Shown: positions 40,593-56,041 of the stretch, piece by piece
How positions within the stretch are numbered: position 1 is the first letter of the stretch
Layout: every line of letters starts with the position of its first letter
Sequence record: OR844650
DNA length: 64,000 bases
Direction: 5' to 3' (one strand)
Origin: Escherichia phage ECO103 4-12-1
Translations under genes and position numbers: made by a program
The notes under the pieces: generated by a model
What the model saw: the letters and a program-made list of their open reading frames with translations, nothing else
Database searches by the model: none
Told to the model about the DNA's origin: nothing

Positions 40593-40660
40593 ATTAATAT
40601 GCCAGTACTTGATACTGGCTTTTTTTGATTAAATATAGTATAATGAATAAAGGAGGAAAT
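40593..40660 (+). promoter_or_regulatory. conserved junction cassette: terminator hairpin (GCCAGTACT..AGTACTGGC + T-run), TATAGTATAAT box, AAGGAGG
   Basis: near-identical ~70-bp sequence recurs before 12 array genes. Confidence 0.55.
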
Positions 40661-41770
40661 ATGTTACCTTTTGTAAGAATGGTTAAGTACGGGAATATTG
40701 CACCAGTACCGAAAAAAATAAAGAAAGTTATAGCAGGATATGATAATTTATATGTACTATATGGTGATGGTTCGCTATATGGTTGTGGAATCAATAACTA
40801 TCAACAGTTAAATATTGATGGAACTGCTACACAAAATAATTGGGTACTAATTACCAATGGTGTTAGTAATGCATGGGCTGGTGGATACAATATTTTATAT
40901 TTGAAAGAAGATAAATTTATAATGCACGGAACTAATGTCTCATTAGGTTTAGGAAATACTACAATTCCATTAGGTGGAGTAGATGTAACTTCTTCATTCC
41001 CAGATATCTCTAATATTAAAATGATATCCATTGGTTTTGATTCAATGCACTATGTTAGTGCTGATGGTACAACTGTATATGGAAGAGGTATGAACACAAA
41101 TGGTTCTGTTGGTTCAGGTAGTACTTACTCACAGAGTACTTTCACTTCAGTACTGAATAATGGAACTAATCAGGTTATTGATATATTTGGTAACGTTAAT
41201 AATACAGTGCTTCTAACATCGAATGGTGAGCTTCGAGCATGTGGGACAAGTGCTTATGGTTCTATAGGAAATGAAACTGGTAAGTGGACATCGTTTGGTT
41301 TAAAATTATCTGGCACTAAAATAATGGGTGGTAATGGGTATAGTACGCTTGCATATACAAATTCGGGAATGTACCACTCAGGGTGGCAGTTAAATGGGGA
41401 ACTAGGAAATGGTTTAGATACTAACGTACAGGTATATCCATTTCAATTTAACTCTAAAACGATAGATAGCAAGATAGATAAAATTGCCAAATCATCATCT
41501 GGGTCATATGTTAACATGTACTCAACAACAGAAGGAAAGATATATACGACAGGTTCGTTTGGTAAAAACGGGTCAACTACTGCATTGAATTTGTTCACCA
41601 ATACATTAACACTTATAAATTACAATCCAGATACCGCCTCGTTGTATACGTGCACAAACTTCAGTGTTGTGTATGATGGTAATGAAACTATTGCTGTAAG
41701 TGGTAGTCCTACATATGTACCAGGGGGCGTTGCCGCTAATAGATGGACTACAATTCCATTACCCAAGTAA
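40661..41770 (+). CDS. RCC1-like beta-propeller repeat protein with MLPFVRMVKYGN leader (copy 2)
   Basis: ORF track 40625; 'GCGINNYQQLNIDG','NGELGNG'. Confidence 0.75.
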   Translation: MLPFVRMVKYGNIAPVPKKIKKVIAGYDNLYVLYGDGSLYGCGINNYQQLNIDGTATQNNWVLITNGVSNAWAGGYNILYLKEDKFIMHGTNVSLGLGNTTIPLGGVDVTSSFPDISNIKMISIGFDSMHYVSADGTTVYGRGMNTNGSVGSGSTYSQSTFTSVLNNGTNQVIDIFGNVNNTVLLTSNGELRACGTSAYGSIGNETGKWTSFGLKLSGTKIMGGNGYSTLAYTNSGMYHSGWQLNGELGNGLDTNVQVYPFQFNSKTIDSKIDKIAKSSSGSYVNMYSTTEGKIYTTGSFGKNGSTTALNLFTNTLTLINYNPDTASLYTCTNFSVVYDGNETIAVSGSPTYVPGGVAANRWTTIPLPK

Positions 41771-41841
41771 TACTATGCCAGTACTTGATGCTGGCATTTC
41801 TTTTTGTATTAAATATAGTATAATGTATAAAGGAGGAAAAT
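41771..41841 (+). promoter_or_regulatory. conserved junction cassette
   Basis: hairpin ATGCCAGTACTTGATGCTGGCAT + T-run; TATAAT; AAGGAGG. Confidence 0.5.
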
Positions 41842-43023
41842 ATGTTACCTTTTGTTAGAATGTTTGATTATGGGAACGTCGTTGAGCCACCTGTGGGTAC
41901 ACGTTATACCTGTAGTGACTATAGTGCGACTTATAGTTTAATAAAGGATGGTGTGTTATATGTATCTGGGATGAATAACTATTATCAGTTAGGTAATAAC
42001 ACTAACGTAACACGTTACAACGAGTGGTTAAAAGTTCCAGAGACTGATAGTGTTAAGTTTTGTAGTACTGGTTATAGTCAGACAATGTATCTGACTAACA
42101 ATGGTAGGATAATGATAGCAGGTGAAGATCCTACTTCCAGTGCGACTTCGGTAAGTGTAAAGGTTTGGACGGATATAACTTCTAGATTTCGTGCAGTTGA
42201 TACTAAAAAGATTGTTTATATTTCAATAGAACGCTTTGGTGTAATGATGATCATGGAAGATGGTTCAGTATGGGCGTGTGGTGTTGATAATACTGGTTGG
42301 AGTGGACAAGGGAGTAAGACTGTTGGTTTCTTTACTTTCAGACAAATATACACCGGAAGTGCAGGAAGTGCAGTTGCTTGTACTGCTGGTACTGGTACTG
42401 CGAGAATTCTGTTAGCTAATGGAACAATCTTGTCCTCTGGTACTAATACATATCATCAATGTAATGCTAGTACTAATCCGGCTGTTCTAACATTCACTGA
42501 ATCATTCCCTGGGGTTGATCCTTCATTGATATATCAAATCAAGATGTGTAATAACAACTGTATTATATTTTTGAGTGATAAGAGATATTACGGTACTGGC
42601 TGGGGAAGTTTTGGTGCATTGGGTGATGGTGATATTACGGGTTCGAATAATAAATTCTATGCAGGTACATTGTCAGTTGCTCCTAAAAACATGCGTGCTT
42701 ATATGTCGTATCTATGTAGTTCTTCTGGGGATTCTAGTATGTACATAGGCGATGATAATTTCATATACACCTGCGGTTATCGTGGGAGGAACTTAATAAA
42801 TGCCACTACAGATATTGGTACGTTCACGAAATGCATTCAAAGTGCACAAGGATACAAGAATGGACTTATATATAGTGGGAATTATTGTGCTGTAGTTTTT
42901 GATCCAGATTTGGGTTCAGGAATGTCATATGCGGTTTCATCACCAAAATTGAATTCTCCAGCACCACAGGCTAGTGTTCCAGCATTGGGTATGAGTTCGT
43001 TACAATCTATCATTTTACCATAA
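41842..43023 (+). CDS. RCC1-like beta-propeller repeat protein with MLPFVRMFDYGN leader (copy 3)
   Basis: ORF track; 'NNYYQLGNN','GSFGALGDG'. Confidence 0.75.
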   Translation: MLPFVRMFDYGNVVEPPVGTRYTCSDYSATYSLIKDGVLYVSGMNNYYQLGNNTNVTRYNEWLKVPETDSVKFCSTGYSQTMYLTNNGRIMIAGEDPTSSATSVSVKVWTDITSRFRAVDTKKIVYISIERFGVMMIMEDGSVWACGVDNTGWSGQGSKTVGFFTFRQIYTGSAGSAVACTAGTGTARILLANGTILSSGTNTYHQCNASTNPAVLTFTESFPGVDPSLIYQIKMCNNNCIIFLSDKRYYGTGWGSFGALGDGDITGSNNKFYAGTLSVAPKNMRAYMSYLCSSSGDSSMYIGDDNFIYTCGYRGRNLINATTDIGTFTKCIQSAQGYKNGLIYSGNYCAVVFDPDLGSGMSYAVSSPKLNSPAPQASVPALGMSSLQSIILP

Positions 43024-54782: not shown

Positions 54783-54853
54783 AATATAGGCCAGTACTTG
54801 ATACTGGCTTTCTTATTTGTATTAAATATAGTATAATGAATAAGGAGGGAAAT
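54783..54853 (+). promoter_or_regulatory. conserved junction cassette
   Basis: hairpin + T-run; TATAGTATAAT; AAGGAGG. Confidence 0.5.
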
Positions 54854-55963
54854 ATGTTACCTTTTGTTAGAATGATTAAGTACGGAAATATTGCACCTGA
54901 AGCACCAAAGATAAAGAAAGTACTGTGCGGTCTTGATAATTTGTACGTCCTCTATGGCGATGGCTCACTTTATGGTTGTGGGGTTAATACGTATTTGCAG
55001 TTAAACGTTGAAAATACAGCAACAAGAAATACTTGGATATTAATTTCAGAAGGTGTTACTGATGCATGGGCTGGTGCGTACAATATTCTTTATCTCAAGG
55101 GTGAAGAATTCATAATGCATGGAGTTACCACACAATTAGGCACAGGAAATACTATGATTCCGTTGGGTGGTTTGAATGTTACTTCTTCATTTCCACATAT
55201 ATCTAATATTAAAATGATATCAATTGGTGCAGATACAATGCACTACGTTGATGCTAGTGGTTCGATTGTTTATGGTAGAGGCATGAATGGTAACTATTCA
55301 CTCGGTGGTGGGTATTCCACGGCTCAGAGTACTTTTGTTTCAGTTATTAATACCGGAGCTAATACAGTTCTTGATATATTGGGTACACAGAATAACACAT
55401 TAATATTAACATCAAATAATGAACTTCTCGGTTGCGGGAGCAGTGGGTATGGTTCACTTGGCGTAAGTCCAGGACAGTATACTACACTAGTAAGCAGGTT
55501 AACAAGTGTTAAACTATTTGGTGGTAACAGTACTGGTACTCTTGCTTATTCAGCCAGCAATATATACAACGCAGGTTGGCAGTATATTGGTCAACTTGGT
55601 AACGGTATTACAACGAACACACAAGTATATCCATTTGCATTTAACTCCACTACTATTGATAGTAAGATACATAAAATATCAAAATCAAGTGCGACTTCAT
55701 ATGTTAATATGTACGCAACAACCGAAGGAAAGATATACAGTACTGGTGAATTTGGTAGAAATGGTTCGGGAGGTGGTTTGAGTAGATTCACCAATACACT
55801 AACTTTAGATAATTACAACCCAGAAAAATCATCATTATACACATGTGCACATTTTAGTATAGTATTTGATGGTAATAATCAAATTTATGCTTGTGGTTCT
55901 TTTTTGTATGTACCAGGTCCTATTACCACGAACTCATGGTCTGCAATTACAATGCCGAAATAA
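54854..55963 (+). CDS. RCC1-like repeat protein with MLPFVRMIKYGN leader (copy 14; paralog of copy 2)
   Basis: ORF track 54836; collinear with 40661-41770. Confidence 0.75.
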   Translation: MLPFVRMIKYGNIAPEAPKIKKVLCGLDNLYVLYGDGSLYGCGVNTYLQLNVENTATRNTWILISEGVTDAWAGAYNILYLKGEEFIMHGVTTQLGTGNTMIPLGGLNVTSSFPHISNIKMISIGADTMHYVDASGSIVYGRGMNGNYSLGGGYSTAQSTFVSVINTGANTVLDILGTQNNTLILTSNNELLGCGSSGYGSLGVSPGQYTTLVSRLTSVKLFGGNSTGTLAYSASNIYNAGWQYIGQLGNGITTNTQVYPFAFNSTTIDSKIHKISKSSATSYVNMYATTEGKIYSTGEFGRNGSGGGLSRFTNTLTLDNYNPEKSSLYTCAHFSIVFDGNNQIYACGSFLYVPGPITTNSWSAITMPK

Positions 55964-56041
55964 TACTATAAAACTATGCCAGTACTTTGTACTGGCTTTC
56001 TTATTTGTATTAAATATAGTATAATGAATAAAGGAGGAATT
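55964..56041 (+). promoter_or_regulatory. conserved junction cassette
   Basis: hairpin + T-run; TATAGTATAAT; AAGGAGG. Confidence 0.5.

Follow-up and report, generated by a model that had tools for sequence, protein, structure and literature searches.

The genome of Escherichia phage ECO103 4-12-1 carries a tandem array of 15 related genes whose bodies have diverged far from one another, whereas the junctions between them have remained nearly identical. The question raised by this locus is what these junctions do and why they have stayed alike. We analysed a stretch of 64,000 nucleotides from sequence record OR844650 (hereafter, the window), which had previously been read from its letters and open reading frames (ORFs) alone (the sequence-only reading), and observed directly the anatomy, folding and conservation pattern of the junctions, the genome-wide distribution of their motifs and the breakpoints that fall at them. 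On this basis, we favour with moderate confidence the explanation that the junction cassettes are late transcription units, one for each gene, that double as recombination linkers.

The propeller gene array and its junctions

The window consists of about 39 kb of small minus-strand genes, the 18-kb plus-strand array and then more minus-strand genes. The array (39444..57211, plus strand), which was identified from Pfam matches, an AlphaFold2 model and ORF starts, contains 15 tandem genes for RCC1-like seven-bladed β-propellers. These genes start at 39444, 40661, 41842, 43099, 44240, 45454, 46665 and 47845 (genes 1–8) and at 49095, 50326, 51590, 52831, 54045, 54854 and 56042 (genes 9–15), and all of them open with ATGTTACCTTTTG. 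The array proteins match Pfam RCC1 and RCC1_2 above the cut-offs, and the AlphaFold2 model of the 40661 product (pLDDT 84, pTM 0.86) is a seven-bladed propeller, the top PDB matches of which are UVR8, HERC2 and RCC1 (TM 0.77). With RCC1 repeats and a modelled propeller fold both present, the array products are predicted RCC1-like β-propeller proteins. The array has been known before, with 13 copies in phage 121Q and eleven in phAPEC6, where the genes are annotated as encoding 'DNA condensation' proteins (PMC5259590, PMC7247149). Mass spectrometry of phAPEC6 virions detected eight array proteins, namely gp003, 005, 006, 007, 009, 010, 549 and 551 (PMC7247149 Table 1). The window belongs to a jumbo coliphage of the Asteriusvirus type; its closest match is WPEC3, with 99.7% identity across the first 5 kb of the array.

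Between 40593 and 56041, the array has 14 junctions: 11 type-A cassettes, one variant (type B) and two translationally coupled junctions. A type-A cassette (~70 bp) comprises a GCCAGTACT…AGTACTGGC hairpin, a T-run, the bipartite motif TAAATA-N3-TATAAT and the ribosome site AAGGAGG. The features are as follows.

39413..39443, plus strand: hairpin-less promoter and ribosome-site half, before the first gene; TAAATAtgaTATAAT at 39413–39427, AAGGAGG
40593..40660, plus strand: type-A cassette before gene 40661; hairpin 40601–40619 (−10 kcal/mol), T7 run, TAAATAtagTATAAT at 40630–40644, AAGGAGG, ATG at 40661
40661..40705, plus strand: example of the conserved 5' coding segment; codons 1–15 read M-L-P-F-x-R-M-x-x-Y-G-N-(I-A-P)
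41771..41841, plus strand: type-A cassette before gene 41842; hairpin 41775–41797 (with a U·G pair; −12 kcal/mol), bipartite motif 41810–41824
43024..43098, plus strand: type-B cassette before gene 43099; hairpin ATACCAGTACTgaaatatgtGCTGGTAT at 43026–43055 (−15.7 kcal/mol), T8 run, TAAATAcatTATAAT at 43063–43077, weak GGAG
44230..44239, plus strand: coupled junction before gene 44240, 10-nt gap; ribosome site AAGGAGAG in the end of the upstream gene, no hairpin or TAAATA
45383..45453, plus strand: type-A cassette before gene 45454; hairpin 45389–45408, bipartite motif 45422–45436
46657..46664, plus strand: coupled junction before gene 46665, 8-nt gap, no cassette
47775..47844, plus strand: type-A cassette before gene 47845; hairpin 47781–47799, bipartite motif 47813–47827
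49025..49094, plus strand: type-A cassette before gene 49095; hairpin 49029–49054 (−16.2 kcal/mol), bipartite motif 49064–49078
50250..50325, plus strand: type-A cassette before gene 50326; hairpin 50255–50282 (−17.2 kcal/mol), bipartite motif 50294–50308
51517..51589, plus strand: type-A cassette before gene 51590; hairpin 51524–51542, bipartite motif 51559–51573
52766..52830, plus strand: type-A cassette before gene 52831; hairpin 52766–52784 (starting within the end of the upstream gene), interrupted U-tract, bipartite motif 52799–52813, AAGGAGGGG
53974..54044, plus strand: type-A cassette before gene 54045; hairpin 53980–53998, interrupted U-tract, bipartite motif 54013–54027
54783..54853, plus strand: type-A cassette before gene 54854; hairpin 54788–54810, interrupted U-tract, bipartite motif 54823–54837
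55964..56041, plus strand: type-A cassette before the last full-length gene, 56042; hairpin 55978–55996, interrupted U-tract, bipartite motif 56011–56025
57212..57441, plus strand: end of the array; hairpin 57217–57239 and T-run, TAAATA 57249–57254, no TATAAT, GGAGG 57273–57277, truncated 16th copy 57283–57441 (52 aa, MLPFRRII…)

The cassette recurs far beyond chance. In the window, the 23-mer TATAGTATAATGAATAAAGGAGG has 12 matches with three mismatches or fewer, all on the plus strand and upstream of array genes (0.00 in shuffled sequences), and the hairpin pattern CCAGTRC-N3-12-RYACTGG has 20 matches at 12 sites, compared with 0.01 expected. TAAATA-N3-TATAAT is found in its exact form 13 times, each time upstream of an array gene, and 28 terminator-like sites lie between 38.5 and 58.4 kb versus 7.6 ± 2.6 in shuffles. 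The sequence-only reading had reported 12 cassettes, a number that agrees with the 11 type-A copies plus the variant, and its order of a terminator, a promoter-like element without a −35 and a strong ribosome site was upheld. It had also listed genes 44240, 46665 and the terminal copy as lacking the cassette; the first two are indeed coupled, but 56042 is preceded by a complete cassette. Four features had escaped it: the half-cassette of the first gene, the hairpin at the array end, the truncated 16th copy and the continuation of the conserved block into codons 12–15. The two halves of the cassette are thus placed separately, with the promoter half alone at the first gene, the hairpin at the array end and neither at the coupled genes.

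The cassette hairpins have stems of 7–12 bp and folding energies of −10 to −17 kcal/mol (z-scores −3 to −6). Each combines a GC-containing stem of 5 bp or more with a short loop and has a U-tract immediately behind it, and the hairpins are therefore predicted to be intrinsic (Rho-independent) terminators; in four of the 13, those before genes 52831, 54045, 54854 and 56042, the U-tract is interrupted. The record of phage G17 carries ARNold terminators at the same junctions, and in that of UE-S1 one such junction is annotated with a terminator, a ribosome site and a repeat_region of 105 bp. No Rfam family matched the window at the gathering thresholds, which leaves the hairpins outside the curated RNA families, and no tRNA was detected in the window with ARAGORN.

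Conservation is concentrated at the junctions. The 13 intact paralogs share a mean protein identity of 23% (range 17–64%), and their aligned coding DNA is 29–49% identical, compared with 84% for the first 45 nt and 33–45% for the gene bodies. The only invariant protein columns are M1, L2, P3, F4, R6, N12 and four repeat glycines. The divergence of the gene bodies indicates that the duplications are old; nonetheless, the junctions are nearly identical, and in every copy the conserved block crosses the ATG and runs through codons 12–15. An ungapped identity of 63% for the 45 nt upstream of the ATG was discarded as misleading owing to 1-nt indels.

Tandem paralogs inherit their flanks when they duplicate, and the cassettes could in principle be a functionless leftover of recent tandem duplication, or else an assembly artefact. 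We regard this as extremely improbable and effectively refuted, given the near-identity of the junctions beside bodies down to 23% protein identity, the presence of the array and its cassettes in 38 independently sequenced phages (2–16 places in each record) and the covariation of the stem described below.

A comparison with EJP2, a more distant Asteriusvirus with a 14-gene array, revealed other cassette types. Type B, with the consensus ATACCAGTACTgaaataYgtRCTGGTAT-T7-gTAAATAcatTATAAT…GGAG… in EJP2, predominates there and equals the odd window copy before 43099, and a second EJP2 subtype has TAAATActgTATGAT. Across 23 aligned cassettes of three types from the two phages, the CCAGTACT arm, TAAATA, TAT(A/G)AT and ATGTTACCTTTT are invariant, whereas the loops, the spacers, the context of the ribosome site and the distance to the ATG vary. 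The outer stem pair is G-C in type A and A-U in type B, with G·U and A·C intermediates. This covariation, which was read directly from the sequences because loop-length differences misalign the 3' arm in the alignment, supports selection on the hairpin as a structure. Paralogs 3, 6 and 14 (window numbering) are preceded by type A in the window, but their EJP2 orthologues by other types. The cassette type thus tracks the genome rather than the gene, which indicates that the junctions evolve in concert and apart from the gene bodies. The feature is real and clearly under selection.

The coding part of the block has a selective history of its own. The first 12–15 codons encode a conserved MLPFxRMxxYGN, of which residues 5–12 are kept despite synonymous variation, indicating selection on the protein. 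At codons 2–4, 28 of 29 copies have the same TTA CCT TTT. In the degenerate 16th copy, MLPF-R-R is written with CTA CCC TTT CGA, unlike in the other 15, whose codons are uniform; the uniformity elsewhere therefore reflects homogenisation and not codon constraint. A structured 5' leader behind the conservation of codons 2–4 was rejected, because the initiation region folds less stably than shuffles. The jumbo phages Serratia BF, Xanthomonas XbC2 and Erwinia Hallingskeid retain M[LI]PF…YGN with different codons. In the AlphaFold2 model of the 40661 product, residues 1–19 are of low confidence and have no secondary structure. The idea that the N-terminus is a propeller-closing strand was dropped on the weak evidence of this low-confidence, unstructured tail. 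A docking or assembly role of the tail is plausible, and the design of a constant anchor with a variable body, together with the presence of the proteins in virions, points to a surface or binding role rather than chromosome condensation.

The candidate late promoter

The bipartite motif offers two candidate hexamers, TAAATA and TATAAT. When a −35 element was sought at spacers of 15–19 nt, the best match was 2–3 of 6 in all 13 copies, and a TGn extended −10 (TGATATAAT) is present only in the first copy, the other twelve having TAG or CAT. A hidden −35 or an extended −10 was therefore rejected, save for the TGn of the first copy. Neither a Mot box (TGCTT) nor a TGAAACG-type upstream element was seen in the aligned cassettes. 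Early genes of the same window have full TTGACA-N17-TATAAT promoters, 22 on the minus strand and 0 on the plus strand.

We scanned the whole 352.6-kb genome of phAPEC6 (581 predicted genes) for the late motif and the cassette. (T)ATAAATA lies 17–64 nt upstream of the genes for the major head protein, scaffold, prohead protease, sheath and baseplate and of many other virion genes. At −75 to −12 of the gene starts, ATAAATA occurs in the sense orientation at 35 of the 581 genes versus 5 antisense, and TAAATA at 74 versus 14. A layout of hairpin, T-run and (T)ATAAATA recurs at gp034c, gp035c, gp158c, gp244, gp245, gp274c and gp323c. TAAATA-N3-TATAAT has 15 sites genome-wide, 13 of them in the array; the remaining two precede gp274c (tail tube, phrog_4542) and gp077 (an abundant virion structural protein), both of which are listed in the phAPEC6 virion proteome (PMC7247149 Table 1). 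The exact cassette was accordingly rejected as a genome-wide promoter class, since TATAGTATAAT is confined to the array and the bipartite motif is found only twice outside it.

Two sigma factors are candidates for recognising the element. One, the gp55-like product of phAPEC6 gp237c, has matches to phrog_12791 at E = 3e-154 and to phrog_234, a 'late sigma transcription factor', at E = 8e-18; this gene lies outside the window and was searched in the relative. The other, gp066c, is an RpoD-like sigma factor with Sigma70 r2, r3 and r4. An ATAAATA late motif and a gp55-like sigma have already been predicted in the Rak2-like jumbo phages CBB and GAP32 (PMC5259590). The phage-specific late-type promoter proposed in the sequence-only reading is therefore not a new class; a late, phage-specific class is still the best reading, but what marks it is more likely TAAATA, which that reading had within the cassette without recognising it, than TATAAT.

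In type-A cassettes, TAAATA ends 25–26 nt and TATAAT 16–17 nt before the ATG. With TATAAT so close, a start about 7 nt past it would fall inside the Shine-Dalgarno sequence AAGGAGG. A start 6–7 nt past TAAATA, as suggested by the geometry of σ70 and T4 late promoters, would give a leader of ~18 nt containing the whole ribosome site. The degenerate terminal junction before the 16th copy has kept TAAATA and lost TATAAT, Hallingskeid has TATATT in place of TATAAT, and a TATAAT-type box at N3 or N4 accompanies only 7 non-array late promoters. TAAATA is thus more likely than TATAAT to be the operative promoter, and TATAAT may be an accessory or a second promoter element.

The array element resembles T4-type late promoters (TATAAATA; ATAAATA in this genus) in being a single AT-rich element without a −35, 25–50 nt upstream of virion genes, in the presence of a gp55-like sigma in the genus and, on indirect evidence, in the genes that it precedes, eight array proteins, gp077 and gp274c being found in phAPEC6 virions and ATAAATA being enriched upstream of virion genes. 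It differs from the T4-type, CBB and GAP32 late motif in that the array copies read (T/G)TAAATA and have TATAAT 3 nt downstream.

The opposite assignment, in which TATAAT is the operative, −35-independent −10 used by host σ70 or by the phage RpoD-like sigma and TAAATA is a spacer or Z-like element (or both hexamers act as promoters), appears unlikely to us but has several points in its favour. All 13 window copies match the −10 consensus perfectly at TATAAT, which is kept as TAT(A/G)(A/T)T across the three cassette types and Hallingskeid; it is not general to the late promoters of the genome and therefore looks separately selected. In addition, phAPEC6 encodes gp066c, and the first copy has the extended −10. 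Against this assignment, 12 of the 13 copies lack TGn and none matches the −35 at more than 3 of 6 positions, in a genome whose early genes use full consensus elements, the start would fall inside the ribosome site, the array products are virion proteins, and the terminal junction retains the other hexamer. The other promoter class predicted for Rak2-like phages has a TGAAACG −35 (PMC5259590), which is absent here.

Under the reading that we prefer, each junction would be a composite regulatory and recombination module of ~115–130 bp, and almost all of the RCC1-like genes would have a late transcription unit of their own. The GC-cored hairpin (CCAGTAC/GTACTGG arms) and its U-tract would terminate the upstream transcript intrinsically. 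About 3–12 nt farther on, the invariant TAAATA would serve as a T4-type late promoter core lacking a −35, read by host core RNA polymerase with the phage gp55-like late sigma. Transcription would start ~6–7 nt past TAAATA, within TATAAT, to give a leader of ~18–19 nt, and TATAAT would act as an accessory melting or initial-transcribed region or as a second weak −10. The consensus AAGGAGG, 4–6 nt from the ATG, and an unstructured initiation region would then direct translation, and the first 12 codons would supply a flexible conserved tail that presumably docks the variable propeller on the virion. The block from the hairpin to codon ~15 is the sole homology common to these ~23%-identical genes, and the phage's T4-like recombination machinery would act on it, so that whole gene cassettes are deleted, inserted, replaced, reordered and homogenised. 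In this scheme, the activity of promoter and terminator, the choice of sigma factor, the position of the transcription start and the docking function of the tail are inferred.

Several observations weigh against this reading. All array cassettes have T or G immediately before TAAATA, whereas A is the commonest base at the non-array sites of phAPEC6 (34/63), so the array copies match the late consensus at 6 of 7 positions with an invariant TAAATA core; 29 of these 63 non-array sites also lack the preceding A. TATAAT is conserved across cassette types and genera (as TATAAT, TATGAT or TATATT) while being absent from most late promoters, and it may be the real, or a second, promoter element. T4-type late transcription requires gp33 and the sliding clamp and is linked to replication. 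Homologues of gp33 and gp45 were reported as not detected in the related phage CBB (PMC5259590). The promoter and terminator functions are putative, and the four interrupted U-tracts and the stems of only 7–12 bp suggest that termination may be partial. As for recombination, the crossover was mapped to the nucleotide for one event only.

A further possibility is that the array is transcribed polycistronically from the first-gene promoter alone, with the hairpins acting as leaky attenuators, 3'-end stabilisers or processing sites and the motif being kept by gene conversion. Two junctions are plainly coupled, the Hallingskeid array is mostly coupled and has the cassette at some junctions only, and four U-tracts are interrupted. 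Concerted evolution is also real, because the cassette type tracks the genome and not the gene, and the synonymous-site identity of codons 2–4 is in keeping with conversion. We nevertheless consider this explanation quite improbable. Only the promoter hexamers, the stem and the ATG context are invariant between cassette types, which argues for selection on those elements; the promoter half stands alone at the first gene, which needs a promoter; two unrelated late genes, those of the tail tube and gp077, are also preceded by the bipartite motif; and a hairpin followed by ATAAATA is a general late-gene layout in phAPEC6.

Exchange of gene cassettes among related phages

Comparison of isolates revealed gene insertions and deletions, swaps and reorderings at the junctions. 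The window and WPEC3 each have a gene that the other lacks, at 44284–45437 in the former and between paralogs 7 and 8 in the latter. At the WPEC3 junction of paralogs 4 and 6, the sequence is a hybrid that follows the paralog-5 junction up to codon ~14 and paralog 6 thereafter, which places the crossover within GAATATTGCACC, in codons 12–15. The coupled junction that follows paralog 4 leads into a different gene in each of three phages: paralog 5 (window), paralog 6 (WPEC3) or a gene resembling paralog 7 (EJP2). The gene order is shuffled: paralog 1, which opens the array in three phages, stands fifth in G17 and fourth in EJP2. In the stretches compared, gene starts numbered 15 in the window, 15 in WPEC3 (leaving out annotated RCC1 genes that lack the exact start motif), 11 in G17, 15 in phAPEC6 (including a two-gene unit repeated at the record ends) and 14 in EJP2.

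All 37 homology-block ends within the array fall between −110 and +60 of an array ATG. As the conserved junction forces block ends to this position, the finding demonstrates that whole genes are the units of exchange and does not locate the crossover of each event. Paralog 4 is 97.6% identical to EJP2 DNA, compared with 90.7% for the neighbouring paralog, a contrast that fits a recent transfer of a single cassette. The sequence-only reading had predicted that the repeats would drive unequal recombination and copy-number change. The isolate comparison, with cassettes in 2–16 copies, bears this out; exchange does occur at the junctions, but crossovers can dispense with the intergenic cassette, the one mapped event lying in coding codons.

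The closest known system is the promoter-early stem-loop (PeSL) of T4-like phages, of which the array cassette would be a late-promoter variant. A PeSL consists of a terminator stem-loop just upstream of a promoter, followed by a ribosome site and ATG, and is known from RB49/phi1, T4/PST and KVP40/nt-1, with PmSL as a variant having a Mot-box middle promoter; PeSLs are repeated in plastic regions at the end points of indels, and homology patches of <50 bp suffice (Arbiol et al. 2010, PMC2839356; Comeau et al. 2014, PMC4122927). Their terminator, promoter and mini-circles have been studied with reporter assays and inverse PCR (PMC2839356). The array cassette shares with PeSLs the order of stem-loop, promoter, Shine-Dalgarno sequence and ATG, which fills the intergenic space, and the occurrence of many conserved copies in a hyperplastic region, here 12–13 within 18 kb with a different gene content in each genome compared. 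In both systems, the elements mark where indels, replacements and displacements between close relatives end (here, the 37 block ends), short homology patches suffice for exchange, and each flanked gene is transcriptionally self-contained, as predicted from the sequence in the case of the array.

There are also clear differences. PeSLs have σ70 early promoters and PmSLs Mot-box promoters, whereas the array promoter has a late-type TAAATA core and no −35; with a −35 match of only 2–3 of 6 and no Mot box, the array element is not a strict PeSL. PeSLs flank unrelated ORFans, but the array cassettes flank paralogs of one virion-protein family. The array block reaches ~45 nt into the coding sequence, where crossovers occur, its stems are CCAGTAC/GTACTGG instead of G-run/C-run, and its carrier is a Rak2-like jumbo phage outside the T4-like subfamily. 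In the literature on Asteriusvirus, RCC1 arrays and their promoters, we found no description of the cassette and no transcript data, only mechanical GenBank annotations (G17 and UE-S1).

The proteins recall another T4 locus. The hypervariable proteins of the T4 internal-protein (IP) locus are packaged in the virion and have in common a short, conserved targeting sequence at the N-terminus (PMC4122927, citing Repoila et al. 1994). Both loci have polymorphic virion-associated proteins with a short conserved N-terminus, variable bodies and genes shuffled between phages; this is an analogy only, and the array proteins have no sequence relationship to the internal proteins and no evident protease cleavage motif.

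More tentatively, and as a possibility that we hold to be doubtful at present, the junction block could be a dedicated cassette-exchange system (a 'late PeSL') for swapping, amplifying and losing virion-displayed hypervariable β-propellers. Exchange would take place within a genome or between co-infecting genomes, possibly via excised mini-circles. Every propeller would plug into one virion site via its MLPFxRMxxYGN tail, for which the unassigned capsid or tail fibres of phAPEC6 are candidate docking sites, and the array would be a recombination-based repertoire of surface-binding specificities with a role akin to tail-fibre shuffling.

If confirmed, these results would extend the PeSL idea of portable promoter/terminator linkers from early ORFan regions to late virion genes in a distant jumbo lineage, and would explain why ~23%-identical propeller genes vary in number and order between otherwise near-identical isolates. 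They also provide a handle on the late-promoter grammar of Asteriusvirus, in which TAAATA occurs with or without a downstream TATAAT, and on the role of the RCC1-like 'DNA condensation' proteins. With its putative activity, the cassette may serve as a ready-made insulated expression unit for engineering therapy-candidate phages.

Irregular copies, neighbouring regions and AGTACT

Several array copies are irregular. The eighth paralog (47845–49024) is frameshifted, with a stop after 59 aa, which is also present in WPEC3, and resumption of the frame at +1 from a T6 run near 48010 (ttcatcTTTTTTgg). The explanation may be a pseudogene, a sequencing error in the homopolymer or a slippage site. The short paralog at 54045–54782 (245 aa) is 95.5% identical to a 245-aa gene of G17 and 98.8% to a 244-aa version in phAPEC6 and is thus no one-off truncation. 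In phAPEC6, a two-gene array unit is present twice across the ends of the circular record (350178–352535 and 3–2360), with an unannotated ORF at position 3; this repeat may be a real tandem duplication or an untrimmed circularisation overlap.

The more distant RCC1-like array of Hallingskeid (stretch 134–9059) consists mostly of translationally coupled genes. At only two junctions, those before 2482 and 7220, is there a hairpin, whose arms are of the GTACT/AGTACT type, followed by a T-run, TAAATA-N3-TATATT and a ribosome site. The N-terminus MIPFxRM..(F/Y)GN is also found in a 223-aa 'virion structural protein' encoded at 8388.

The palindrome AGTACT, often as CAGTACTG, builds the arms of the array hairpins and is the most over-represented hexamer, with 918 occurrences in phAPEC6 versus 119.5 expected and 268 in the window versus 21.6. 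The coding regions of phAPEC6 contain 779 copies, spread over all three frames, where codon-order shuffles give 133; the counts for other palindromes with this base composition are 53–223. We found nothing in the literature on this over-representation. The AGTACT hairpin arms might also be recognised by a phage protein.

A different kind of cassette occurs on the minus strand between ~13,800 and 32,200, where there are more than 20 intergenic copies between small early-type genes. Their σ70 promoter is close to consensus, with TTGACA or TTGCAA separated from TATAAT by 16–17 nt that often include cAGTACTg, and is followed by a GGGGAG…CTCCCC stem-loop without a U-tract, a ribosome site and ATG. 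They resemble RB49-type PeSLs in their G-run/C-run stems, but the hairpin lies in the 5' untranslated region, after the promoter. In the equivalent small-gene region, the G17 record carries ARNold terminators. Examples in the window are the following.

16200–16286, minus strand: early-type cassette
19541–19627, minus strand: early-type cassette
22743–22838, minus strand: early-type cassette
28028–28111, minus strand: early-type cassette
31064–31150, minus strand: early-type cassette

Between these cassettes and the array, the stretch from ~32,900 to 36,500 has few long ORFs; the GC skew flips its sign near 34 kb, and the genes remain on the minus strand until 39.3 kb. From ~36,500 to 39,341, very small minus-strand ORFs (~61–75 aa) stand in tandem, back to back, upstream of and divergent from the array, and both WPEC3 and G17 have long runs of 180–210-nt genes in this place. 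The divergent intergenic region of 102 nt contains a minus-strand σ70-like promoter for this small-gene block, TTGACA-17-TACTAT (39367–39395), back to back with the first promoter of the array.

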